Shown: piece after piece, positions 4,401-64,000 of the stretch | Numbering within the stretch: position 1 is the first letter of the stretch | How the letters are laid out: every line of letters begins with the position of its first letter | IMG/VR virus record: IMGVR_UViG_3300036820_000009 | Coordinates: 29,726 to 93,725 of that record | Reading direction: 5' to 3' (one strand) | Source: a virus | Length of the DNA stretch: 64,000 bases | Program-made: the position numbers and the translations under genes | The notes under the pieces: model-generated | The model's input: the letters and a program-made list of their open reading frames with translations, nothing else | Database searches by the model: none | What the model was told of the DNA's origin: nothing

Positions 4401-4766
4401 TCAGCCGGTGGCGCGGCCCGACGCGCGGCCGAGATCGGTGCCGGGCATCATCGTGTCGCGCGCCGGATCCTGCATGGTCAGGCGCCCTTCGTCGGTCAGG
4501 AACATGCGCTCGCGAATGACCGGCCGCGGCGGTTCCTTGATCTTGGTGTGCATCGTCACGTCGACGCCGTTTTCGTCGGCCGCCAGATCGATGACGATGG
4601 AGAATTGACCCTTATGCTTGCCGTGATAGCGCGAGACGCGCGTCGCCAGCAGCTCCATGAGATTGTTGAATTCCTGCGTCGCGATCGCGCCGTCGTCGCC
4701 ATGATTGATCGTGGCGATCAGCCGATCCGGCGTACGGATCTCCCATGCCTTATCGTTGTCGCTCAT
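4401..4766 (-). CDS. Conserved phage protein (usual DUF2303 partner)
   Basis: Ends FLTDEGRLTMQDP; SD upstream. Confidence 0.65.
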   Translation of the reverse strand: MSDNDKAWEIRTPDRLIATINHGDDGAIATQEFNNLMELLATRVSRYHGKHKGQFSIVIDLAADENGVDVTMHTKIKEPPRPVIRERMFLTDEGRLTMQDPARDTMMPGTDLGRASGRATG

Positions 4767-36198: not shown

Positions 36199-37545
36199 TT
36201 ACGCCGCCAACTTCATGGCGTGCGGTTCGAAGAGGTTGCGAATGATCGTCGGTGCCTTCTGGATCCGATCGCGCACGATCGTCGAATCGATCTGGCCTTT
36301 GTTCGCGGCTTCCAGTTGGTTGAGAATGTCCTTGGCCGCGAATTCATTGACCTGGTCGAGCTGGCCGTTGCCGACCATTTCCTCGATCTGCTGATGCAGC
36401 GACAGCGCCGCCGCCTCCTGGTCGGCTTTCGCCAGCGCCGGCATCGCGGCGGTACCGGCGGACCGGTTGCGCATGACGTCGAACATCTGGCCGATGGTCA
36501 TCTGAAGCATGCCGAGTCCATCGGTCGCTTTCTTGACCTGCTCTTGCAGCGTGGTGAGCTGCTGCGCCTTGGCCGCATCGTCCTGATTGCCGGTGGCGGG
36601 ATCCTTGCGATCGGCCTGGTTGCCGGTGGTGTCGGTCACCGCCTTTTCGGCGGTGCCGGCCGCCGCGGCGACCGCCGGCGTTGCGGCCGCGGCGGCAACC
36701 GCGGGGACCGCGGCGGCGATGGTGGCGGCGGTCGCGGTCGCGGCCTTCGCCTTTTCCTCGTCGTCTTCCTCGTCTTCCTCGTCTTCCTGCACGACGTTGA
36801 CGTCCGCCTTCAACATGGCGTCGGCGCCGCCGATGAGGTCGGTGATCGATTTGCGCAGCGGCGCGCCGGCCTTGCCCGCCGCGCTGGCATGGAGCCGCGC
36901 CTTGACGAGCAGCTTGGCGGCCGATTTACGCAGCGCCTTGATTTGCGCCTTGGCCTTTTTCTTCTCTTCCTTGTCCTCTTCGTCCTCCATCTCGGCCTTG
37001 ATGGCCTCGATCGACGCGAGCTGCGCGCGCGCCTTGGCGAACAGCTTCTTGGCCTTCGAGGCGTTGATTTCGACGACTTCGGAATCCTCTTCCTCTTCCT
37101 CTTCGTCGTCTTCGGCGGCCTTGATGATCGCGGCGATGAAAGTGCCATGGCCCTTCATCTGCTCGATCAATGCCGACAGCGCGCGGCCCTGCGCCTTCAC
37201 GGAACTGGCGACCGGCGCCAGCATCCGCTGAAAATCCTCGGCTTCGAGCTGGATGCCGTGCTGCCCGGCCGGTCGCGAATAATCGCGCACCATCTTCTCG
37301 GCGCCGCCGCCGGACGATGCTTCGGATGGGCCGGTCTTGAGTTCCTCGCGGGTCGGGTTCTTGTGAACTTCGCCGGCGCGCCAACGATCGGTGACGATTT
37401 CGCCGGCTTCGAGATCCTGCGAGCGCAGCGCCTCGACCGCTTTTTCGAGCGCGCTATCATCGACGAGCGACGCAATCACGCCGGGATCCGCTCCCTTGAG
37501 CACCTTGAGCGCATTGGCGATCACGGGCACGCTTGCGAGCTTCAT
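36199..37545 (-). CDS. Scaffold-like acidic/Ala-Lys-rich head protein (in frame with an upstream ChaB-like segment starting at 37824)
   Basis: AGGAG SD before ATG 37545; poly-E/D tracts, KA motifs. Confidence 0.65.
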   Translation of the reverse strand: MKLASVPVIANALKVLKGADPGVIASLVDDSALEKAVEALRSQDLEAGEIVTDRWRAGEVHKNPTREELKTGPSEASSGGGAEKMVRDYSRPAGQHGIQLEAEDFQRMLAPVASSVKAQGRALSALIEQMKGHGTFIAAIIKAAEDDEEEEEEDSEVVEINASKAKKLFAKARAQLASIEAIKAEMEDEEDKEEKKKAKAQIKALRKSAAKLLVKARLHASAAGKAGAPLRKSITDLIGGADAMLKADVNVVQEDEEDEEDDEEKAKAATATAATIAAAVPAVAAAAATPAVAAAAGTAEKAVTDTTGNQADRKDPATGNQDDAAKAQQLTTLQEQVKKATDGLGMLQMTIGQMFDVMRNRSAGTAAMPALAKADQEAAALSLHQQIEEMVGNGQLDQVNEFAAKDILNQLEAANKGQIDSTIVRDRIQKAPTIIRNLFEPHAMKLAA

Positions 37546-49610: not shown

Positions 49611-50240
49611 TCAGGTACCCGTGCCCCAATGCGATAGGCCGAGCCGCGTCTTTTCCCATTCCTGATCGGAATCGTCCGCCACCTGTGGATTCATGATTTG
49701 CCATTCGCCGGCCATGCTCGGCGGCACCACGAAAATCGCCATGGCGCCCAAGCGGATCAGCGAAGCGAGCCCGCGCTTGCCGGCTTCGTTCATTTGCGCC
49801 ATCACCGCCGGCGCGCGCCACGCCGCGGGATAGCCGCTGTCGACCCAAACCTGGATTACCCGAATGGTTTTCTTGTTGCCGTATTCATCGGTCGCGATTA
49901 CGTCATCCTCCATAATGTCGAATACCACATGCGATCGATTGGGCTTCAGCCCGTCCGGCATATCCGATTTGACCAGCCACATGCAGGACCATAAATGGCA
50001 ATCGATCGGCCGCGTGTCATAAATCGCGCAGCAGGTGCCGGCCTTTCCGATCCGCGCATGATCACACCATTTGTTGCGTACCTTCGCGATCGATTTGACC
50101 GGCAGCAATTTGCAGCACAGCGCGCAGTCGCCACAGGCGCGCTTCGGCACCGGAAAATTCGGAATGACGTCTTGCGGGCGCACCTCGCCGGCTTTTATGC
50201 GTCGCATGTTTTTATCGTGTTCTTCCTGGGTATAGTTCAT
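49611..50240 (-). CDS. YkgJ-like cysteine-cluster protein
   Basis: CGDCALCCK, WCDH, CAIYDTRPIDC..WSCMWL. Confidence 0.7.
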   Translation of the reverse strand: MNYTQEEHDKNMRRIKAGEVRPQDVIPNFPVPKRACGDCALCCKLLPVKSIAKVRNKWCDHARIGKAGTCCAIYDTRPIDCHLWSCMWLVKSDMPDGLKPNRSHVVFDIMEDDVIATDEYGNKKTIRVIQVWVDSGYPAAWRAPAVMAQMNEAGKRGLASLIRLGAMAIFVVPPSMAGEWQIMNPQVADDSDQEWEKTRLGLSHWGTGT

Positions 50241-50909
50241 CGCAACAGCCCGATGATGTTCTTGATGGTCGACGCCAGCTCCGTGTCGGACAGGCCGGCC
50301 AGCACCTTTGGAATAGCCCCTCTATCGATCGATTCCAGCGTTAATTGGTTAGCGCCGGTCCGGTAATTGGCCACGCGTTTGTAAATCGCGGCTTCCTCGG
50401 TCGCCAATGCGCGCCTGGCGCCCATATGCAGAATAATGTCGGCCGCGATGGTCAATCGTGTATCGGTCAGTTTGACGCGTATTTCCGATTCCGGATCGAC
50501 AAGATTCGCCACCGGGAATTCGACATGGCCTTTGAGCGCGGTCACGATCAGCCGCACCGCTTCCTCGACTTCGGCCGGTTCGAAAACGATATCAGGCATG
50601 CCGCCGCTTCTTTTTCTTGGCTTGGCGGCGCATTGCCGAAAACCGGTCGAGATCGTCGCGCGATAGCATGATGGTCTTGATCGCCGGCCGGCGATGCGCC
50701 GGCACGCCGAGGAACACATAAAGCCGCCGCACTTGCGCGGCCGACAGCATGCCGCGATTGCGGCGCAGTGCCGCCCATTCCGGTTGGCGCATTTTCAGAA
50801 AGAAATCGGGCGGAATCGCGAGTTGCCGCACAGCCAGGTCGCCGGCGCAGGCATGCGGCGTATCCGCCAGCACCATCGCGCCACAACCGGGACATTGCTG
50901 TAAATCCAT

Positions 50910-51209
50910 TTACGCGCGCTTCGGCAGCGGCTTGATCGATGCGATTTCGCGATCTTCCATGTCCAGCGTGCGCGCCAATGACCAATCGCGATGAAAATCC
51001 ATCCACAGTTTCGGCGACGTCGACGTCAAGCGCGCGAGCCGCAACGCGATCGATGGCGTGAGGCCGCGCCGGCCGCCCACCAGTTCGTTGATGGTCAGAC
51101 GGCTGACGTGGATGGCGTCGGCCAGCTCGCCTTGGGTCAAGCCATATTCCTCCAACAGGCGCGCGACAAAGGTGCCGACATGAGGTGCGTCCGCGACAGC
51201 GATCGTCAT
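50910..51209 (-). CDS. HigA-family XRE HTH antitoxin-like protein
   Basis: HVG...GLTQGELADAIHVSRLTINELVGGRRGLTPSIALRLARLTSTSPKLWM. Confidence 0.8.
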   Translation of the reverse strand: MTIAVADAPHVGTFVARLLEEYGLTQGELADAIHVSRLTINELVGGRRGLTPSIALRLARLTSTSPKLWMDFHRDWSLARTLDMEDREIASIKPLPKRA

Positions 51210-51774
51210 TGCGGTGGCTTCTCGCCAAACTCCTTGATCAAATATTCCATGCTGATCAGCGGTACGCGCTGCGCGAACGCGGCAACCAATTTTTTATGTT
51301 CGTCGGTCGAAAAATAATCCATGCCCGATGGCGTGACCATGAACACGCATAGTCTTGGATGATAGAAAATATGCTGGTGCCTGATTGCTTCGCACATCGC
51401 CATGCCGACGATATCGCGGCTGCGGCGGCCTTGCGCCCTGACAAATGCGGCGGCCTGTTCTTCGGGTTTCAATCCATCGAACAGCCGATTCGCGATTACC
51501 ATGTTATTGACTGCGTTATAGGCGCGCCGGATTTCCGCGTGCGTCATCAAAACGCGATAGGTCACTTCATCCGGCACGATCAGCTTTAGATCCCGATCGA
51601 ACAGGCAAAGCGTGCCGCAATTGAGGCAACAGGAAACATCGCCAGGTTCCGGCGACTTTATCGGATCGGTCACGCCGGTCGCGGCATCCATCATGCTATG
51701 GCAATTCGGACAGGCTTGCGGCACGACACCCGTTCGCGGATCGCGCGGCTTGAATTTTGTCCACGGGCTATCGG

Positions 51775-52206
51775 TCATGGCGTTGTCATTATAAGCTCGT
51801 TTGACACGTTAAAGGGCCCCTGATAGCCACGGAACGGGATCGGCTGCTTGAACACGCGATAATTTCCACGCTTGAACGCAAAGCGATCGGGTCCGAAATT
51901 GCCGCACGCAAGATCGATATCGTTCGCCGCGCACGGCATGTCATGCTCATCGAGCGTCGGAATCGCCGCCACGATATCGACGGTGCCGATCAGCGCGCCG
52001 AAAGGCAGCGCCAAATCCCAGCCCGCGCCGAGAAAATCGGTACAGATCCGCGCCAGCTCGCTATCGTCGTACAGATGCGCGCGGGTCTTGGCGGCATGCA
52101 CGGCGATCGTCCCGCGCGTTGTCAGCCGCCAGGCGCGCGTTTCATGGATCTTGGCCGGCGAGCACCAGAGCGAGGCCCATGGCTGGTGAAGCGACAGTGC
52201 GATCAT
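51775..52206 (-). CDS. ASCH-domain protein
   Basis: ALSLHQPWASL...KIHETR.W...RGTIAVHAAK...PIPFRGYQG. Confidence 0.85.
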   Translation of the reverse strand: MIALSLHQPWASLWCSPAKIHETRAWRLTTRGTIAVHAAKTRAHLYDDSELARICTDFLGAGWDLALPFGALIGTVDIVAAIPTLDEHDMPCAANDIDLACGNFGPDRFAFKRGNYRVFKQPIPFRGYQGPFNVSNELIMTTP

Positions 52207-52417
52207 GATTCGTGCTGATTCTCTTAAAGCTTTTCGATGATCGTTTTGGTGAACTCGATTTTCGATCCGATGTAAACCTGCCGATCGTCGACCACGTATT
52301 TGAAATCCCGGCGCGCCAGTTCCTCGATCGTATCGCGCAGATCGTAAAACAATTTCCGCGCTTTTTTGGCCAGCTCTTCGTCCTTCATGCCGCGCAATAC
52401 GTATCGCTCGTCTTCGT

Positions 52418-52960
52418 TCATGCCGGCACCCATGGCGTGATCGATACCGTATCCGGCAGCCGCATTTTACCGCGTGCCAGCGGATGAATCGGCGCGCGCT
52501 GTCCGGTCAAGCCGAACACATGAAGCGGAATCTCGGAGTTCGCCAACATCCGCCAGAACAGGCGCACCCAAGGATCTTCCCAATAGCAATTGCCGGATGC
52601 CGCCACGACGATGCCGCCGGCGCCGATGGTTTCCCGGCAGATGCCCAAGGCGGTTTGAAAGCATTGACGCTTATAGGCATCGCGTTCCGCCAGCGTGGTC
52701 GCCATGTCATACCAGCGATAGAGCTCGACCGGTTGCGACGCGCGCCGCGTATGCGCATTGAATCCGATGAATCGGCCATAGCCGAGATGCCGCGAGAAAT
52801 TGTGCAGCCGCGCGATGGTCGGATCGTTCTTGCCATCGATATCGGCTTCCGCCGTCGACGGATTCTGCATGCCGACCGCCATGACGCCAGGCAGCGCGGC
52901 ATCGACAATGCGATCGAGCCGCTGCCGAAAATTCGGTTCGCCGAAAACGAATTCCGTCAT
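52418..52960 (-). CDS. DUF1643-family protein
   Basis: NPSTA....NDPTI, VVAASG, PIHPL. Confidence 0.75.
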   Translation of the reverse strand: MTEFVFGEPNFRQRLDRIVDAALPGVMAVGMQNPSTAEADIDGKNDPTIARLHNFSRHLGYGRFIGFNAHTRRASQPVELYRWYDMATTLAERDAYKRQCFQTALGICRETIGAGGIVVAASGNCYWEDPWVRLFWRMLANSEIPLHVFGLTGQRAPIHPLARGKMRLPDTVSITPWVPA

Positions 52961-53728
52961 TGAATGCTATGCGCCGGCAAGTCCGGCATGCCTTTCTTCC
53001 GTCGCTCGATCATGCCTTCCAACACCGTGATCACCTCGGCGCGCGCGGCGGTGCTGATGTAGCTGCATCGCGGTTCGGTCCAGACGAACAAGCTGAAATG
53101 CACTCGCTCGCCGGCGACGTCGACAATCATTTCGTCGATCGTGCGCGCGATATCCTGCATGCCGCGCGATACCCGATCCATCGCATTGTCGCCGGTCACG
53201 ATATGCGCCTTATTTTCGGTTCCAGCCATTCCGGCGGATCGGCGCCGCCGTCTTGCACGATTTCGAACACGGTGCCATTGCCTTTTTTTTCGATGATCAT
53301 TTTGGCGCCGCGCTTACATTCGCGACAAGTCCCGCCGTCCGCCATATCCTGCTCCGCGGCCACAAGGCGAATGGTCATAAATCCCGCCGCCCCACAAAAC
53401 GGACATGGCAATATCGAGCGGGTATCGGCCGAGTAGCCGGCGAATTGCGTATTGTTTTGGCAGCGGCGCGTCAGTTCTTCCATATTGGTCGGCGGTTTAT
53501 CGATCGGCATGGCCATCGCTTTCTCTTAGCGCGCGCGCTAGCGCGCGCGCGTTGCGTTCCACCAGCATCGCGTCAGCCATGTCATAGGCATTGCGCGCGA
53601 CTATTTCGGCCCAATTGGTTTCGTCATAGTTTTTATCGCGAGCGGCGACGATATTTGCGCCGAGCGGCGTGAATATCGAGGCCATCGCCATCGCCGCGAA
53701 CAAATCGCGCAATTCGAACCCAGGGCTT

Positions 53729-54391
53729 TTATCGGCCATAATTTCCTCGTTTGGATTTCGTGCCGGCCAGGATCAGCCGCGGTTCGACTTGCGGCGGCAG
53801 CGGCGCGGCCAGGGCATCGGCGACGATCGCAAGCCCGGCCTGATCCGGCAGGCGCGCGCCATCGCGCCAGAATTCCACGTGCAGCAACGGCTTGATCGGC
53901 CGGATCCTTATGTCGACGGTACGGTCCGACGCGATGAGCGTTTGCCCATGCGCCATGCCGAGCACAAACAGTTTCGGCCGCGTCGGCATGACGGATTCAT
54001 CGATAAATAAATAATGCTCGGTTTTCTCGACATCGACCTGTTTGGCATCGATGCGGTGGCTATAGACCGGCGCCGCAAGATAGGGACATACCTGAAGCGC
54101 GTAGACCGCGCATTCGCGATGCACCGCCGAATCGATATAGAGCCCGTCCGGATGGAATGCGCTCAGCGGCCCGCCGACGAACCACCGGCCACGGAACAGC
54201 TTGCCGCCGCAAATCGAGCATTCGTCGCGGACGATCAGGCCTTGCCGGATATCGGAATCGTTGATGGTAAAATGCGGCATGCCGTCGCGATCGCGCAGCA
54301 CCACCGCCGGAATGGGATAGCCGCGGCGATCGCGCGGCAGGTGCTTCATCCGCGACGGTACCGGCACATCGAACCAGGTGCGGTCGGTCAT
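53729..54391 (-). CDS. Conserved phage protein
   Basis: LPRDRRGYPIP, CSICG, FVGGPLS, HRECAVYALQVCPYL. Confidence 0.7.
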   Translation of the reverse strand: MTDRTWFDVPVPSRMKHLPRDRRGYPIPAVVLRDRDGMPHFTINDSDIRQGLIVRDECSICGGKLFRGRWFVGGPLSAFHPDGLYIDSAVHRECAVYALQVCPYLAAPVYSHRIDAKQVDVEKTEHYLFIDESVMPTRPKLFVLGMAHGQTLIASDRTVDIRIRPIKPLLHVEFWRDGARLPDQAGLAIVADALAAPLPPQVEPRLILAGTKSKRGNYGR

Positions 54392-54702
54392 GGCTTCCTG
54401 GTTTGAAGGAAGCGCTGAAGCTGTTCGACCTTCAACAGTCGGCCCTCCATGATATCGGTCATGTTGAGCATGCCGTGCGCCACCAGCATCGTGACCATGA
54501 GATCGAGATTGCCGATTTCCATGGCCAGGCGGCGCGCATTGTCGTCAGGCTGGCCCGGTTGGGTTTCCTTGGCGCCGAACCGCAACAGCTTGGTGCCGAG
54601 CTGCGCCACTTCCGCCGCTTCCTCGATCAGAATGGTCACCAACTCGCGCTCGTAAGGCGTCGGCAATTCCGCTGGCGTGACATAGCGCTCGATATCGGTC
54701 AT
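54388..54702 (-). CDS. MazG-like nucleotide pyrophosphohydrolase-fold protein
   Basis: LIEEAAEVAQ..TKLLRFG...LAMEIGNL. Confidence 0.6.
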   Translation of the reverse strand: MTDIERYVTPAELPTPYERELVTILIEEAAEVAQLGTKLLRFGAKETQPGQPDDNARRLAMEIGNLDLMVTMLVAHGMLNMTDIMEGRLLKVEQLQRFLQTRKP

Positions 54703-57700
54703 TTTTCTCCCCGCAATGCCTTATTGATCGTGTTGACGTGAAGCCCCAATCGTTCGGCGATGAATCGCGGTTCCACGCCTTGCGCATTCAGCCGTTTGAT
54801 TTTCTGGATCGTGGCGTCATCGAGCATGATATCGCTGCGTTTTTTCGCGGTTGCCGTTTTAGCGTTTTGTCTTGCCGCCATTGCCGGTCCCCGACTTGAG
54901 ATAGAGCTGATCAAGCTGCTCCAGCGCCTTAATCACGGTTCGGCAGGCTCTCATCGGCACGCCGCTGGCGTCCTGTATCAACAAAATCAGCGCGCGATCG
55001 TTGAGGCCGCCCCTGCGAATGCGCCGCACGCCTTCGGCGATGTCGCGAATGCTGGTCGCGAGAATTTCGGTCGCTACTTCGTCTTCCGGCTTTTGCTTGA
55101 TGCTCACTGTCATTGGATTGTCCTGTTAAGCGATTCGACGCGTTCATCGATCTCGGCGCGCAGCCAGGTTTCGACTTGGTCCTGGATGGTTTGCGCCAGA
55201 TCCGCGACCAGCTTCGGCGTCATCTTGGTGCCCAGGAAATACCGCGCCAGATCCTCGCACTTCGGATCGTATGCCATGCTATCCGCGGCCCAACGTATCC
55301 GCGATGCGTTCGAGCGACCTGGCGATCGACGCAATTTCATCGCGCGCGCTCATCAACTCGTCGAACAGCAAACCGGTCGCTTCCTGATCTCTATCTTTTT
55401 CCGCTCCGACAATGCGCGAGCGGAGGATGAGGCGTTGTTCCGGTGTCAGCATTATTTAGCTCCCCGTCGCGATTTGACCGTTGAATTGTAAACCGTTTTT
55501 CCGCTGGCCTTCCCGGCGAATGCGGCCACCGCGTTCATCACGGTTTCCACGTCGTCGACGTTGTGCGTCCAGCCGGTACAGTTCTTGCCATTTTGGCACT
55601 CGCTTGTGCATTCGCCGCCGTTTTTGACGCAGAGCGCGCGCGCCGCGAATTCGATGACGGCGCCGTTCGGGCCGTCGACATAGGTGATGATTCTTGCCAT
55701 TACGCGGTTCCCGCCTTTCCGTTTTTCCGCATGAGCTCCGTGCCGATCGCGATCAATTGGCTGCCCAGCTTCAGCGCGGTATCCGCCGAAAAATGCGCAT
55801 GCGCGAATGCCTTGTTCTCGTCGTCGAAAAAATCGATGCAGGCCGATTCATCGGCGAGCTCGCCGCACATGCCCGCCGCGACATGCGACGCATTGAGCAT
55901 GCCGGTCGAGCCGATCCGGAATTTTCCGGTGAGCGTCACTTTGCTTCTGCGCTTCGCCGGCATCAGGTTCGCCGCTCGACGATCTGTTTGACGGTCAGGT
56001 CCGGCGATATTTTCAGCATCTCCACGATCTCTTGCATGCTCAGGTGCGGCGCATCGGCCATGATCTGGAAATGGCAGCCGGGATGCGCGACGTCGAAATC
56101 CCGCATGTGCTGGAGCCACGCGCGCGCCAGCGCCGGCGGCACCTGCGCGATCGCCCAAATCGTGAGCGGCTTAGTATTTGGTTCCGAATCCATCGTCCGC
56201 TCGTTTCGCCATGGAAGGCCGCCGCGCCGGCAGCGCGGCCTTGCGCGCGGCCGCGAGCGTGTCGTCGGCATAGCTGCCGATGTCCGCCAATTCCTGGATC
56301 AGGTCATCCACGCTGACGGCCGCCGTGCCGATCGGCCGCACCGAGGCCGTCATGGCCGCGTCGTGCGCGCGATCGGCGATATGTCTCAATCCGAATCTCA
56401 TGATCTCCAGCGGCGTGGGTGCCTGCCTCATTCTCGCGATAAATCGTTAATGGCCTGATCCTGCGCGGCATGCACCGCGAGGTCATGCTGGAATCGGGTC
56501 GCCGGCAGTTCGGTGAACCGCATCCGGCCATCGGTTTCGGGATAGCCGCGGCAGACTTCATGCAACTCCCCGCCGTGGACGTAGCCATCGATGCAACCGA
56601 GGCACAATACCGCGCAGGCGCCATCCGGCGGCAGGCCGCATTCCAGACAGCCCCAGCCGTGCCCTGGCACGGCCGCCACGCGGTCGAGCAGCACGATCAG
56701 CGTCGCGGGTGCCTTGAGGCAGATGCAGCACGGGCCCAGCGCCGGCGGCGCGCCCGGTGCGTCGTCGGTCATGGGCTCAGCACCTTCCGGATTTCCTGGA
56801 GCATGGCGCCAAACGCGTCGCCGGTGCCGTAGTAATTGGCATTGGCGAGCGCGGGCTGCGCCAAGGCCAGCAACCGTTGCGCGAGCCGGCGCTCGCCTTC
56901 CCGGCGATACTGCTCATGGCGGTCCGCCGCGCGCAGCGAGCGCGTGCCCAGGAACAGGATATTGCCGGCCTTCAGTCGATCGTCCGCCATGTCTCGTCGC
57001 CATTATCGGTACGGAATTCTCCCTCGAAACTTTCGCGGCCGGCGATGCACACGCCCACTATTTCGCTCGGAATGCACGCATAGCACATTAGGGCTTCGAT
57101 GAAGCCGACGCGCGCGGCCGCGCCGTGCAGGCCGATGGCCGCGATCGCGCAGCTATCGCCGCGGTCAAGCAGTTGACGCGCTTTTGCCTGACTGATCGGC
57201 ATCGGGCGGCTCCGGAAGCGTTTCGATCAATTCGCCGGGCAGGAATCGAACCAGGAAGCAGGCCTGCCCGGTCATTTTCCAGTGTGCCAGCGCCAGTGCG
57301 CGCAACGCGGTGCGCGCGATTTTTTCGTTGCGGCTGATCAGCGGCGTATGGCTCGTGCCGACCATGGCGCCGATATTGCCAATGGTGCCGTCGGGATAAA
57401 GCGACAGCCATGCCCACAGCGTGAAATCCCGCAGTTTTTCAGGTTCCGGCATTGGCGCGGTTCCTGCGTTCCTTGAGATCGTGGATTTTCGCGAACGCAT
57501 GCTTGCCGTAATCGTCGCCATGCTCGAACCATAGTCCGATCAGCCAATGCAGCACGAATGCCTGCTCCACTTCGGCGTTGGATTTGATTTTGGCGCCGGC
57601 ATCCCGGAACAATTGCGCGATCGCGCCGCTTTCCCAAATCATTGGGCTCAACAGGTCTATCAGCGCCGGCGTGAGCGTGGCGGGCCATCGCGAGGTATGC

Positions 57701-58734
57701 CGCGCGCCGATATCGGCGCCGGTTTCCAAGGCCTCTTTCAGCAACGCATAGATCTTCCGCATATCGAGCATGCCGGCTTCGGAGGCTTCGTGCGCGCGTT
57801 CGGAAAACCCCTCGTGCATCGCATGGATTTCGGCGTCGATCGCTTCCTTGGTCGCGTTGGCGGCCGGTACCCTGGCGGCGGCATCGATCCGGCACGCGGC
57901 AAAATGCGGCGCCAGCGATACGACGCGCGCGGCTTCCGCTTCTTCGTCGGTGTCGTATTCTTCGGGATCCCGCGCCGTTTCGGCCAGCCACCGCTTGGCG
58001 CGCGCGATATCGAGCTCGGTCACCGGAATCGCGGGCGCCGGATTTTCGGCGACCGGCGCGGGTATATCCGCCGCATCGATCGCGGCGGCGGCTCGCAGGA
58101 ACAGGGCGGCGATCGCTTGGGCGGGGGCGGCATCGACCACAAGATAGATGGCCTGCGATGCCTTGCGCAGTTCGGCGACGAGCGCGGCGGTATCGGACAT
58201 GGTCACATTCCCTTCGATGGCCGGCGGGCCTGGATATCGATTTTGCCGCGCCGGATTTCGTCTTTCGCATTGACGCCAGCCGCGTCCGGCGGCGGCCGGC
58301 CGCGATCGATGCCGGCATCGGCCGGCTCGCGCGGCCGCACCACGTCGGCGATATGCATGCCGGCCAGCGTGACGCGGATGCCGTCGATTTCGCGTCGGTC
58401 GAGCTGCAACAGCCGGAATTCGATATCGGCCGCCAATTGGCCCGCGGCCAGGGTCGGCATGCGATTGCGCCGGATCGGCTGATCTTCGCGCGCCATGCTA
58501 GCGATCCTTCGGAATACGGTCGACGCCGTCATATGCCAGCGCGGCCACGCCGCAAAAATCCTCTTTCTCGTAGCCGCGACAGAGATGCGCCATTTTCATT
58601 TCGAACCGTTGCCGCGCGGTTTCGCCGGCCGCGAATCCGGTATCGTAGTCGGATGCATTCAGCGTATAGCCCGCGACAAAGCCCATGGCCGGCAACGCCA
58701 CCACCGCGATCATGACCAGCGTCACGCGCATCGA

Positions 58735-59490
58735 TCAGGTTTCCTCGCGATAGCCGGGCCACAGCGCCGGCGCAATTTCCTTCAGGTCGGGTTCTTCCTC
58801 GTCGGCCAGCTCGATGCCGTCGATCGCGATCAGCGGATCGACCTGCCGCAGCAGGCCGGCCAGCACTTTCGCCTTGCCGGTTTCGTCCTGCACCAGGCCA
58901 TGATCCCAACGCACGCGTTCGGCCATGCGCGCGATCACCTTGCCGAGCGAGGCCGGCGCGATGGTGTAGCCGCGATGCCCGAATTTCAGCACGCGCAGCA
59001 TGGAGCCGCCGGCGTCCTCGTTGCGCGCCGGCGCCATGTAGCGCAGCCGTTTGGCCGCGAGATCGGTGTAGAACAAATCGTCGCAGGCGCCCATCCATTG
59101 AAAGTCGCCCGCGGGCGGCGGCGCCGGTACCGCCCAAATCGCGGCGCGCGCGATGGTAAAATCGAAACTGGCGATGCAATTGGCGGCGTCGTCGAACAGC
59201 CAACGCGTGATGAATTGCACCGGCATCCGGCCCACCGCATGCACGGTGATGGCGTTTTTGGAGCGATGCGGCTTTTCGATCTTGTAGAGCAGCGCCAATT
59301 CGGTCGCGGCATGTTTCAGCTTCTCGATCGTGTCGCCGAACAAATCGATGTCGGTGATCGATTCCTGCGCGACGATGGACCGGATGAACCCGCCGGCCAG
59401 GATCAGCCGGTCGCGCGCGACGATCTTGCGCAGCGCGTCCGGCACAAACGATACGACGCGGTGAACGTCTTCCGGCAGAAGATTGGCCAT
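58735..59490 (-). CDS. Nucleotidyltransferase (poly(A) polymerase/CCA-like head domain)
   Basis: LAGGFIRS...DIDLF, PVQFI, SFDFTI, RVLKF..RGY. Confidence 0.75.
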   Translation of the reverse strand: MANLLPEDVHRVVSFVPDALRKIVARDRLILAGGFIRSIVAQESITDIDLFGDTIEKLKHAATELALLYKIEKPHRSKNAITVHAVGRMPVQFITRWLFDDAANCIASFDFTIARAAIWAVPAPPPAGDFQWMGACDDLFYTDLAAKRLRYMAPARNEDAGGSMLRVLKFGHRGYTIAPASLGKVIARMAERVRWDHGLVQDETGKAKVLAGLLRQVDPLIAIDGIELADEEEPDLKEIAPALWPGYREET

Positions 59491-62400
59491 CTTAGATTTT
59501 CCCCTCGTTTTTTTCATCCAACAGCGATCGGTGCCATCGGGCGATCGCCGCGGCGGTTTCGACCGAGTGATGGAGCGCGGCATCGATTTCATCCAATACG
59601 ACGCTTCGATAGGCGAGCAGCGCGCGGACCGCGATTCGATGAAGCCACGCATCGCCGGTCATGATTCGGTCGGCGGCCAGATCGGCTTTCGCGGCCGCGC
59701 GTTTGGCGCCATCCCAAAACGCTTCCAATTCGGGCTGGTCGATCAGCGCGCGCAGCCGCGCGATTTCCGCGCTCATGCGCTCGATCGTCTCGGCCTGTTC
59801 CTGCAACGCCTTGCTGCCGAGCTCGCCGACGATCGCGGTGCCGTCCGGCCGCAGGTCGACGGTGCGGCCTTCGTCCATGGCGCGCTCGATGTCGGCCACG
59901 GATACGCGTTTCGGCGGGTCGGACATTGGCGTTCCTTTCGGTTGCGGCGAGCAGTTCATGGTGCAAAACCATGTCCCGGCCATGCTGACGCAATCCCCGC
60001 AGGGATAACCGCCCTCGGCGAGGGTTCGATAGAAATCCATCACCGGAACACCTTGCCGCATTCGCAGGCCACCAGCGTCGTGCGGCTATGGGCGGTAAAG
60101 GTGATTTCCCGGTGCAAGCAGGCGATCGGCCGGAACGGATGCGCGTAAATCAGCAGCGCTTGGCCCAGCGCGCGCGCCGGCAGCGCGCCGGTCATGATTC
60201 CACCAGCGTCAAATCGAAGGGCGCGACGCGGCTGATATGCACCGCGACGCCGCAGGCCGGACACGCATCCGTGGTCAGTCGGCAGCGGCCGATCGTGGTT
60301 TCGACGACGGTGCAGACCGTGCCGGCCGGAATGGTCATCAGTCCGCTCCATAGCCGCCGCTTGAGCTTGACGCGCAAGCCGACCCAATCGCGTTGCAGCC
60401 GCGGCCAGCCTGGCGGTGCCTTGCTCATGAGCGCGGTGGCCAAGTCCAGTAATTTTTCTGGATGACCTCATGCTCGCGGTCGATCAGCTTCGACACTCCC
60501 CTGACATGCCATATTTGTCCCGGTCCGCATATCGTCAGATCGGCCAGATCGGCGATGCCGGCGTCCACGCGCGTCACGATCGCGGGATAGGGATCGAGCT
60601 GGAATTCGATGGTGTGATCGTAATAGTGAACGATGCGGCCGACGCCGAGCGCCGGCGCCAGGGTTTCCTTGAGGCGATACACCGATTCGATTTCTTCGAG
60701 CATGACCGATGGGCCGCCCGGCATCGCGATCGGCGGCGTCGGCGCAAATCCCGCGTTGCGCAATGCCGTCTCAAGATCGGCCGAAAATTCCGGATCGAGC
60801 GGCCGCCGGCGCTGCGCGTATAGCCACAGCAGGTCTTGCGCGGATTTGTCCGCCACGCTCAGCGGCACCTTGCCGCGCGGCGTGGTCGGATATTTGTCGC
60901 TTTGGAATTCCCCGTCGATCAGATGCGCGCCCATGACAGCCTTTCAATCCAGCGGCAATATTTGCATTCGTTAGGTTGCGTCATTCCGTCGCCTTGGCGA
61001 GGGCGCGTATGCGCGTCGCCAAGAACTCAATCGTCGCGGTTTTGCCGTCACGCTCGATTTCTTGCGCCGCCTGTTCCAGCCAGTATGCGCGACAGGCGAG
61101 GAAGCCGGCAGCAAATCTGCAATTATTACCGGCCTCGCCGCCGCATTGCGGAAATGCGCATCCCGGCGGCCATGGGGTATCGTCGTCGCACGCCGTCCGC
61201 ACCGCTTCGGCGAGCCGAGGATCGGGCGCGGCGGTCATGGCCGTTTCGCCTCATCGTCCGGAACGGTTAATTCAGGGTGATTTAATCCGTGCATCGCAAC
61301 CGCTCGCCGTAGAACATCGTGCAAAAACCGCATTTCGTCATCGGTCGCGCGGCGATTGAAATAAAAGCAAAGCGCCGCCGCGTTATCTTTGTCGCGCCCA
61401 ACGCCGGGCACCCGAAGCTCAATCACTTCGCGGCTTCGTCGTCGGCGAGAATAGCCACCGGCCGATCGTGGGCCCAGCGCAGCGTTTCGATCGCGCCCAA
61501 GAGATCGTCCTCGGACATCACCAGATCCTTCTTGAAATCCGGCGCGCCCGGCATGCGAACCACCAGCGTCAGCTTGACGTCGGCCGCGAATAGGCCGCCG
61601 ATCGCGTCGAGATGCCGCGCGATGCGGCAGCGTAGCCGCGCCAGTCGCGCCAGGCTTTCCGGCGAATGCGTCGGCGCGTCCGTCGCTTGCGTCTCGGTCA
61701 TGCGTTGCCCGGCCATGCCGGATCCGGCGCCTTCGAGGTCGCGGCGAGCCAGCCGCCATCCGGCGAGATTTCGAATTCGCAGCGCCGGCCATCGGTCAGC
61801 CACACGCATTTGCCGCCGCCGTCGAGACTGCCCTCGAACCGCAAATCCATCTTGGCCAAATCCAGCACCAGGCATTGCACCGCGCCGAGACTGCCGCGCA
61901 GCATCGCCGGCACCCCCGGCGACAACGGCGCGATCGTCACCAGCCGCTTCATGCGCGAGCCCCTTCAACCGGCATTCTTGAACCCCGGCAGATACCGAAC
62001 GCCCACCGTCGCCATCACCGCCGGTCGCCACACATGCCCGCACCCTTGGCACGCATGCGTGTGATGCGGCCGTACCGCGAATTGGCCCTCGTCGACATGC
62101 AGCATGTCGCACAGCGGACAATGCAAGCGCATCGGCGCGCCCACGTTAAGGCCCAGCGTGCCCGCGTCGCGCAGCCGATCCTCCAACTCCGACGAGGCCG
62201 CCGCCAGCAATTCCGCTACCCGCGCGCTCGGCAGGCCGAGATTCAGCGCGGCGCACGCGTCGGCAAATTTTCCCATGCCACCCCCGATGCCGCCGGCAAA
62301 GCATTCAGCGTCCCATGTCCCATCGCCTCGACCGGCTGAAACGCCAGCTCCGGATACCGCGCGTGCAACCATTCGTCCAGCGCCGCCAAATACGCGCGGT

Positions 62401-62578
62401 CGTAATCGTCACGGCTGAAATACAAACTGCACTCGCACTGCACGCGGCACAACAACACATCGATCAACCGCTTCCCCACCAGCCATATCGCCGCCTCCCG
62501 CCGCGCGCGCGCCACCGCCCGCGCGCCGAAATTCGCCGGAAACAATCGATCGATCAATGCATCGAACATCCGCCGCAT

Positions 62579-62607
62579 CTGTAATGCCGTAACATGCGGC
62601 ATGTCAA
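62579..62607 (-). promoter_or_regulatory. Leftward promoter candidate with a palindrome in the spacer
   Basis: TTGACA at 62607-62602; ATGCCG-taacatg-CGGCAT at 62584-62602; weak -10. Confidence 0.4.
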
Positions 62608-62867
62608 CGATGGATTTTGGGAAATATCCGCGGAAGGGGGTGAGCCGATATACCCCGGTATTTTACGGCGCCGCCCCACCTGGCACCCCCATCGCCCCGT
62701 CGCAGTCACATTTGATTAACCCCGGCGCCCCATGAACGAATGATTAATATTGCCTTCAATTGTTGTGCTTTATTAATCACGGCATGCAATGGCCGTACCA
62801 ATCGATTTAGCTCAAATGCCATCTAATCAAATGCAATGCGATATCTGTCAATCGCCTGCGGAATGTT

Positions 62868-62896
62868 TTGCTTTTTGGAAACTGTTGCCTTATAAC
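62868..62896 (+). promoter_or_regulatory. sigma70-type early promoter
   Basis: TTGCTT, 17 nt, TATAAC in an AT-rich divergent region. Confidence 0.65.
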
Positions 62897-62940
62897 TTGG
62901 TGCTGCCGGGCAATCCCGCCCGACCATCGGAGTCTAGGAC

Positions 62941-63081
62941 ATGCTCATTCAAACCTATAAGGGCCGCCGCTATTACGCCACGCCGGAGGCCGCCACGCCG
63001 CGTCGTTCCATGGCGGCAGGCCTGTACCTCGCCGGCCTATCGTCCGGCCTGCTCGCCTTTGCCGCGATGGTGCTGGCATGA
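62941..63081 (+). CDS. Small membrane protein (46 aa)
   Basis: Own translation MLIQTYKGRRYY...GLLAFAAMVLA; GGAG upstream. Confidence 0.45.
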   Translation: MLIQTYKGRRYYATPEAATPRRSMAAGLYLAGLSSGLLAFAAMVLA

Positions 63082-63218
63082 CCGATCATGCTGTCGGCCT
63101 CATGGCGCCGGTGCATTTCTGGAACGTGTCTTTCCGCAAGGTCGGCGGCCTGCACTTCCTCAAGATCGGTCGGTTTTGTGTCTCGTTTTGCGTTACCGCC
63201 GAATATCGGTCGCTGTAG
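63078..63218 (+). CDS. Small hypothetical protein (46 aa)
   Basis: ATGA-coupled; MTDHAVG...RKVGGLHFLKIGRFCVSFCVTAEYRSL. Confidence 0.5.
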   Translation: MTDHAVGLMAPVHFWNVSFRKVGGLHFLKIGRFCVSFCVTAEYRSL

Positions 63219-63276
63219 GACGAAACGCGGGACGCCATGTCCCGCGTCGCGGCGTTATGCGTCGCCTGACGAGTCC
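63218..63276 (+). ncRNA. Type II hammerhead ribozyme
   Basis: Stem II GGAC/GUCC, GAAA, stem III CGCGGGAC/GUCCCGCG, GUC cleavage triplet (C63248), stem I GCGGCG/CGUCGC, core CUGACGA. Confidence 0.9.
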
Positions 63277-63296
63277 AACCCCTAGGAGTCTATCGT

Positions 63297-64000
63297 ATGA
63301 AACCCTCACAGCTTGCCACGGCGCTACAGGTGATGATGTCGGCCGACGTGCCGACGCATCTATGGGGCGCGCCCGGCATCGGTAAGTCGTCAATCGTCCA
63401 CCAGGTCGCCAAGAAATTGAATCTCGAATTGCGCGATATTCGCGCGGTGCTGACCGATCCGGTCGATTGGCGCGGATTGCCTGTCGTCAAGAATGGCCGC
63501 GCGTCATGGGCAATGCCCGATTTCCTGCCGCACGATCCGGACAGCAAGGGCATTCTCTTTCTCGACGAATTGAACGCGGCGCCGCCCATCGTGCAAGCGG
63601 CGTGCTACCAGCTTGTGCTTGATCGCCGGCTTGGCGATTATCGGTTGCCTGCCGGTTGGCGCATTGTTGCCGCCGGAAACAATGAGAAAGATGGCGCCGT
63701 CGTGCATCGCATGTCGAGTGCGTTGCGGTCGCGGTTCCAGCATCTCCAATGCGAGATTGACGTTTCCGATTGGCTCGCATGGGCGCTGGGCGCCAATGTC
63801 CGGACCGAGATTCTGGCATTCATCAAATTCCGGCCGGAACTGTTGCACAAATTCGCACGCGACGCGCAAAGCTTCCCATGCCCGCGCACGTGGGAATTCG
63901 CGTCGCGGATTCTCGACAGCAAGGCGCCCGCCGATATCGAATTGCCGCTGTATACGGGCACGATTGGCGAGGGCGCGGCGGCCGAGCTAATGGCATTCCT
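63297..64000 (+). CDS. MoxR-like AAA+ ATPase (truncated; absent from the ORF track)
   Basis: Own translation MKPSQLATAL...WGAPGIGKS...ILFLDELN...IVAAGN...ALRSRF...PCPRTWE; SD AGGAG at 63284-63288. Confidence 0.88.
   Translation, partial: MKPSQLATALQVMMSADVPTHLWGAPGIGKSSIVHQVAKKLNLELRDIRAVLTDPVDWRGLPVVKNGRASWAMPDFLPHDPDSKGILFLDELNAAPPIVQAACYQLVLDRRLGDYRLPAGWRIVAAGNNEKDGAVVHRMSSALRSRFQHLQCEIDVSDWLAWALGANVRTEILAFIKFRPELLHKFARDAQSFPCPRTWEFASRILDSKAPADIELPLYTGTIGEGAAAELMAF

Follow-up and report, generated by a model that had tools for sequence, protein, structure and literature searches.

A compact type II hammerhead ribozyme motif between a small gene and a MoxR-like ATPase gene in an uncultivated phage genome

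Type II hammerhead ribozymes of bacteria and phages were described by Perreault et al. in 2011 (PMC3088659) and are represented in Rfam by family RF02276. These ribozymes occur in clusters that flank prophage genes, expression in E. coli has shown in vivo cleavage for some of them, and it has been proposed that phage hammerheads cut long transcripts into gene- or operon-length mRNAs (PMC3088659). In the type II ribozymes that were tested, a pseudoknot between loop I and the 3' tail was needed for fast cleavage (PMC3088659). Three type II hammerheads located by phage-like genes of Desulfovibrio vulgaris were validated by cyPhyRNA-seq; they cleave both in vivo and during in vitro transcription, leaving 2',3'-cyclic phosphate and 5'-OH ends (PMC8782182). 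The role of prokaryotic and phage hammerheads has been listed as an open question (PMC6155905). Hammerheads located between phage genes were already known in 2011, and the reading given below to the copy found in one phage genome is the standard one.

Cleavage by the hammerhead core takes place 3' of position 17 and leaves a 2',3'-cyclic phosphate on one product and a 5'-OH on the other. The usual end-dependent RNases should act poorly on hairpin product ends that carry a cyclic phosphate or a 5'-OH. RiboJ is an engineered element in which a type III sTRSV hammerhead with loop-loop contacts, together with a hairpin, is placed before a ribosome binding site; the upstream RNA is removed, leaving a 5'-OH hairpin-capped leader, and expression becomes independent of the upstream context. 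The locus described here is similar to RiboJ in that a hammerhead lies just upstream of a ribosome binding site and would yield a 5'-OH hairpin-capped leader. It differs in that it is a natural type II ribozyme, and in that the upstream product would also receive a hairpin.

The sequence analyzed here, referred to as the window, is a stretch of 64,000 nucleotides corresponding to positions 29,726-93,725 of a complete phage genome of 93,725 bp (IMG/VR record IMGVR_UViG_3300036820_000009). An exact 127-bp repeat is present at the two ends of the record (window 63873-64000 and L123:1-127, L123 being the sequence into which the last gene of the window continues). This repeat is spanned by the ATPase gene, and therefore the contig is a closed circle cut in a gene. 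In other words, the record is a circularly closed assembly rather than one that stops at a physical genome end. The initial annotation had pointed to the genome beyond position 64,000 as a place to look for more copies of the ribozyme. There is no such sequence: the window ends with the record, and the gene continues at the record start. Over the 29.7 kb of the genome outside the window, a covariance model (R1, described below) found no second hammerhead copy.

Analysis of GC3 showed that minus-strand genes extend from approximately 50,000 to 62,602, and a 338-nt AT-richer gap (62603-62940) separates this block from a + strand unit (Table 1). Divergent promoters are presumably located in the gap; a consensus scan of 62300-64000 found no sigma-70-like promoter. 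The order of the + strand unit is ORF 62941-63081, ORF 63078-63218, the ribozyme, the MoxR-like ATPase gene, a DUF3150 gene, and a gene encoding DUF2201_N and DUF2201 domains (VWA-like metallopeptidase). The first small ORF had no Pfam or PHROG match. An ORF at 62789-63385, which reads through the ribozyme motif, was rejected as non-coding on the basis of GC3. The ATPase was homologous to a LUZ7 ATPase annotated as N4 gp24-like, and the cultured phages with a homolog were mostly N4-like. The genes on both sides of the ribozyme had been called early genes in the initial annotation, a label that homology to N4 gp24-like ATPases does not establish, and the early status of the + strand genes is plausible but unproven.

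Table 1. Features of the ribozyme locus, in window coordinates
Feature	Position	Strand	Remarks
First small ORF, 46 aa	62941..63081	+	GGAG 8 nt before ATG; GC3 0.77
Second small ORF, 46 aa	63078..63218	+	ATG overlaps preceding stop (ATGA); GC3 0.74
A directly 5' of stem II	63217	+	near-invariant position in compact class
Stem II 5' strand GGAC; C63221 = C11.1	63218..63221	+	pairs with 63273-63276
Core G12 A13 A14 (GAA)	63222..63224	+	
Stem III hairpin, closed by A15.1 (63225)-U16.1 (63247), loop GCCAU	63225..63247	+	
C17, predicted scissile bond 63248/63249	63248	+	by place in hammerhead consensus
Stem I hairpin, 6 bp + U63255-G63259, loop signature U-U-A-U-G	63249..63265	+	
Core C3 U4 G5 A6 C7 G8 A9 (CUGACGA)	63266..63272	+	
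Stem II 3' strand GUCC; G63273 = G10.1	63273..63276	+	
Shine-Dalgarno AGGAG of ATPase gene	63284..63288	+	7 nt after ribozyme motif, 8 nt before ATG
MoxR-like AAA_5 ATPase gene, 5' part (326 aa whole)	63297..64000, on into L123:3-404	+	

A textbook hammerhead motif lies between the tiny gene and the ATPase gene. It is a complete type II hammerhead of 59 nt on the + strand at 63218-63276, with stems I, II and III of 7, 4 and 9-10 bp; stem III has 9 bp, or 10 bp if G63234-U63238 is counted. It contains the CUGANGA strand, the GAA strand, the A15.1-U16.1 pair, a C at H17, and the three helices in order, as is characteristic of the hammerhead class. The pairs adjacent to the core are all standard, namely G10.1-C11.1 (G63273-C63221), 1.1-2.1 (G63249-C63265), and A15.1-U16.1. 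The hammerhead structure was both the minimum free energy and the centroid fold of the 59 nt (-30.2 kcal/mol, z -2.56). The TAG stop codon of the second small ORF (63216-63218) has G63218 in common with the first base of the ribozyme, an offset of -1, and 20 nt separate the end of the ribozyme from the ATG of the ATPase gene. An RNA beginning at 63249 would have a leader of 48 nt. The initial annotation had described a type II hammerhead that starts at the stop codon of a 46-aa ORF, ends 7 nt before the AGGAG, and cleaves after C63248 to give a 48-nt leader. Its structure was confirmed base for base, its borders were recovered at the same bases, and its cleavage site coincides with C17 as placed by the consensus. 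Stem III was also considered as a transcription terminator, which was rejected because there is no U tract downstream of it.

To describe how often such a motif arises by chance, a descriptor was used that covers all three hammerhead topologies and calls for a perfect core and for stems that run without interruption over at least 4, 3 and 4 bp. The motif at 63218-63276 was the sole match on both strands of the whole 93,725-bp genome. Across 150 dinucleotide-preserving shuffled genomes there were 0.14 loose matches per genome, and these reached a maximum of 16 stem pairs, compared with 21 in the real site. A looser descriptor, in which stem II could be as short as 2 bp, had no match in 436 kb of bacterial loci.

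The motif shares with the type II ribozymes of PMC3088659 and RF02276 the same permutation (an open stem II, with stems I and III as hairpins), the same core, the phage intergenic habitat, and the proposed role. The copies described in PMC3088659 are clustered, whereas the window copy is single. The consensus of RF02276 has a 2-bp stem II and a loop I of approximately 10 nt that pairs with the 3' tail; in the window copy, stem II has 4 bp, loop I is 5 nt long, and the pseudoknot is absent. Pairing of loop I with either flank amounted to at most 3-4 bp, which is the chance level, and to 3 bp with the 3' tail. With no pseudoknot of at least 4 bp to either flank, tertiary stabilization of the ribozyme rests on a putative contact of another kind, which is taken up below. 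The D. vulgaris hammerheads, which are compared here by their description, are likewise type II and found beside phage-like genes; they differ in that they were predicted by standard models and in their host and gene context (PMC8782182).

Rfam at gathering scores had no match in the whole window, and an Rfam scan of 301 nt with E values up to 10 had no hammerhead match. When 83 nt were scanned, the best Rfam family was RF02276 (Hammerhead_II) at 17.0 bits (E 0.15), short of its cut-off of 37 bits. The alignment covered the full 66 positions of the model and placed the core correctly, and the tail positions of the model were without matches. The score was only 17 bits because that model describes the pseudoknot subclass. 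Other compact phage copies scored 23-34 bits with RF02276, likewise under the 37-bit cut-off. A genome-wide search of the phage's own genome with this family missed the real site and gave two weak matches elsewhere (18.6 and 14.8 bits), both of which were taken as chance; the 18.6-bit match, at window 36851-36918, was inspected. The genome-wide search was not relied on, and it also missed hammerheads in another genome (G006) that cmsearch finds. A search with RF00163 was uninformative, as it matched nothing anywhere, controls included.

To compare the motif with similar ribozymes, the pattern GACGAAAC..GTC..CTGANGAGTC, taken from the window motif, was searched against a viral collection and was found in at least 119 contigs. 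Among the matches listed, 112 loci had a type II hammerhead validated by the descriptor, with 169 good copies in total and 1-7 per locus. Most of the copies among these listed matches were compact, with a 4-bp stem II of GGAC and GUCC, a 6-bp stem I closed by U..G, and short loops; in a minority, stem II was 3 bp and loop I was long, with clear pseudoknot pairing to the 3' tail. An alignment of 66 distinct compact viral copies (A1), from which the window sequence was excluded, was used to build the covariance model R1. With filters off, the window site scored 57.5 bits with R1 (E 3.4e-18), covering positions 1-52 of 52, a score that is partly built in, as the seeds were fished with a window-derived pattern and chosen for pairing; the next-best match was 10.8 bits. 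Because the sequences were selected for pairing, a covariation count on A1 is not independent evidence either. A search with hammerhead covariance models had been suggested as a check on the initial annotation, and its outcome depended on the model: 17.0 bits with RF02276, below the cut-off, and 57.5 bits with R1.

Other features of the class were not part of the search pattern. An A directly 5' of stem II was present in 98% of 132 compact copies among the matches listed, and in the window copy this is A63217. A U opens loop I in all 66 of the A1 copies and a mid-loop A is frequent, giving compact class loops the signature U-N-A-N-G, to which U63255, A63257 and G63259 of the window correspond. 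The stem lengths of the class are fixed, 4 bp and 6+1 bp, and are the same in the window copy. All of these peripheral features (the A at -1, the loop I U and A, and the stem lengths) were found in the window copy. The window ribozyme belongs to a compact, pseudoknot-free class that is common between genes of uncultivated phages. In comparison with the compact GGAC/GUCC class (loci L002-L120), it has the same architecture, peripheral signature, and placement from stop codon to Shine-Dalgarno (SD) sequence. It differs in two respects: many compact-class phages carry 2-7 copies per locus, whereas the window genome has one, and its stem III is longer, at 9-10 bp compared with a mode of 6-7.

The placement of the family relative to genes was surveyed at 166 viral type II sites among the matches listed, with random same-strand positions as controls. 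At 79% of the sites (16.5% of the controls), the next 60 nt downstream contained an SD-like motif and the beginning of an ORF of 50 codons or more, at a median distance of 23 nt. A stop codon that ends a frame of 50 or more codons lay within 15 nt at 80% of these 166 sites (8.7% of the controls), and both the upstream stop and the downstream SD and start were present at 63% (1.8% of the controls). The most common stop offset was -1, in which the last base of the stop codon is the first base of stem II. With -1 and 20 nt, the window copy falls right on the mode and median of the family.

We consider it probable that the motif is a genuine self-cleaving, compact, pseudoknot-free type II hammerhead that cuts the + strand operon RNA after C63248. 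Judging from the sequence, the ribozyme most likely cuts the shared transcript. The initial annotation had proposed that cleavage processes a polycistronic transcript, a proposal that fits both the published phage hypothesis (PMC3088659) and the position of the ribozyme between stop codon and SD; cleavage and transcription are the parts that we infer. Transcription of the + strand is suggested by gene orientation and GC3, which place the site inside the + strand unit that follows the gap at 62603-62940. The two 46-aa ORFs, the ribozyme, and the ATPase, DUF3150 and DUF2201 genes would be transcribed as a single RNA, the ribozyme would fold locally, and cleavage would follow 3' of C63248. The two halves would then be joined by the 4-bp stem II alone and would probably separate rapidly, because stems I and III are hairpins and only stem II holds the halves together. 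The upstream product would retain its stop codon and another 30 nt, closing with the stem III hairpin and carrying a 2',3'-cyclic phosphate at its 3' end. The mRNA of the ATPase operon would begin with a 5'-OH on the stem I hairpin, at the head of the 48-nt leader, in which the SD would be free. As with ribozyme insulators in synthetic operons, this would probably uncouple the stability or translation of the ATPase operon message from the leader ORFs. The analysis shows the motif, its statistical significance, its class membership and its typical placement; transcription, cleavage in vivo, and any consequence for stability or translation are predictions of the model.

Hammerheads of three architectures were also observed shortly before homologous ATPase genes in a few unrelated, uncultivated phages. 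A type I hammerhead (L145:2400-2464) ends approximately 25 nt before the start of a homologous ATPase gene. A pseudoknot type II hammerhead (L165:2404-2465) ends 35 nt before an ATPase start, and a second copy in the same locus (4487-4554) precedes the DUF2201 gene. Compact type II hammerheads end approximately 20 nt before the ATPase start in two loci (L053:5432-5485, minus strand, and L072:1583-1635). In several other lineages, a hammerhead in the same orientation was found 0.3-1.4 kb upstream of the ATPase gene. Type I hammerheads whose stem II has a 2-bp base and a long insert were present in a group of AT-rich viral contigs (L176:1374-1449, L199:2066-2127, L201:1886-1946, and relatives); in the two for which ORFs were listed, L176 and L199, the hammerhead starts directly at a stop codon and lies upstream of the ATPase gene with one to three small ORFs in between. 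One contig (G013:C1, the contig of L114) had two hammerhead-like matches, at 424-482 on the minus strand and 1322-1385 on the + strand, which face away from each other approximately 0.8 kb apart. Each points into its own gene block, and the + strand match is approximately 0.6 kb upstream of an ATPase homolog. The layout resembles a divergent control region in which each arm has its own ribozyme.

In the majority of loci with the ATPase gene there was no such ribozyme. A hammerhead directly upstream of the ATPase gene was absent from 78 of 80 viral loci, and a hammerhead upstream of this gene was found in none of 80 bacterial-genome loci and none of 6 cultured phages. Five distant viral loci had no hammerhead, a blastn search with a 2-kb query had no match among GenBank phages, and the nearest available relatives (33-56% protein identity) had no orthologous copy. 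Most relatives with the same ATPase operon lack the ribozyme, and it is therefore dispensable for the operon as such. A descriptor scan of whole records found no hammerhead outside the ATPase operon in the window genome, G006, or G007, and a scan of G011 with a looser pattern found no other hammerhead-like match.

One alternative is that the ribozyme is real but is tied to the MoxR-like ATPase/DUF3150/DUF2201 operon in particular, either because the operon needs a ribozyme-made 5' end or because the ribozyme marks the 5' border of a mobile cassette. The presence in three other lineages of hammerheads of three architectures 20-35 nt before the homologous start, the same-orientation copies further upstream in other lineages, and the restriction of hammerheads to the operon in the four genomes scanned (three with the descriptor, G011 with the looser pattern) argue for such a link. 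Against it are the viral, bacterial and cultured phage loci with no directly upstream hammerhead, and the genes flanked by phage hammerheads are not constant (PMC3088659). In addition, L145 and L165 came from a search confined to the surroundings of ATPase genes, and the enrichment over phage genes in general is only a rough estimate. A specific link between hammerhead and operon is possible but unproven, and as an explanation of the window copy it is unlikely. A related proposal, which we regard as doubtful, is that hammerheads have been recruited repeatedly and independently 5' of the MoxR-like ATPase/DUF3150/VWA-metallopeptidase operon and, separately, that the compact class docks stems I and II through its A at -1 and the U of loop I. 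The recruitment part would read the type I, pseudoknot type II and compact type II ribozymes as having come to the same spot in unrelated phages, where each is usually the sole hammerhead of its genome. If repeated recruitment were true, it would mean that this operon in particular gains from a ribozyme-made 5'-OH end.

Folding of the motif with its neighboring sequence bears on a second alternative. In a nearest-neighbor model, the pairing probability of stem II was 0.96 for the isolated motif and fell to approximately 0 with 70 nt of upstream or 25 nt of downstream sequence. When positions 63150-63330 of the window were folded, the GGAC strand and the core GA/GUCC segment paired with neighboring sequence, including part of the SD. 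Given a stem II probability near 0 with flanks, activity would have to depend on co-transcriptional folding and a tertiary contact. We speculate that this contact, which would replace the pseudoknot, may be supplied by the conserved A at -1 and the U of loop I; the analogy is to a reverse-Hoogsteen pair that type I and type III hammerheads conserve (PMC6155905). The same drop in probability could instead indicate a conditional switch, in which pairing with the flanks, or ribosomes at the TAG or SD, decide whether stem II forms, so that cleavage is tuned by neighboring translation. The stop codon overlaps stem II, and a terminating ribosome must therefore cover the 5' half of the ribozyme, as a switch of this kind would have it. 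However, the probability of stem II with flanks was low across most of the class (median 0.03), and the energy model ignores tertiary contacts and co-transcriptional folding. No conserved alternative helix was found for the window copy, and its tight abutment to the stop codon and SD may just reflect the compactness of phage genomes. We regard a conditional switch as very unlikely.

That the motif is a chance look-alike or a dead relic, with no cleavage at physiological Mg2+ and no role, is highly improbable: it is a single copy, has no orthologous copy in the nearest available relatives, lacks the pseudoknot, and scores under the Rfam threshold, but none of the 150 shuffled genomes had a comparable match, R1 gave an E value of 3e-18, all core positions are intact and the class-specific peripheral nucleotides are kept, the placement is at the family mode, and the descriptor was without a match in the 436 kb of bacterial loci.

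Two results are of practical use beyond this locus. Since the scores of compact copies with RF02276 fall below the 37-bit cut-off, the Rfam type II model misses the compact class at that cut-off and routine annotation under-counts compact hammerheads. The stop-codon-to-SD placement of the compact class is now quantified. The window copy adds little alone, but it offers an uncluttered case, being the single copy of a complete phage genome. With one ribozyme, one defined upstream cistron, and one defined downstream operon, the effect of cleavage on the stability and translation of the mRNA would be easier to test here than in multi-copy arrays.
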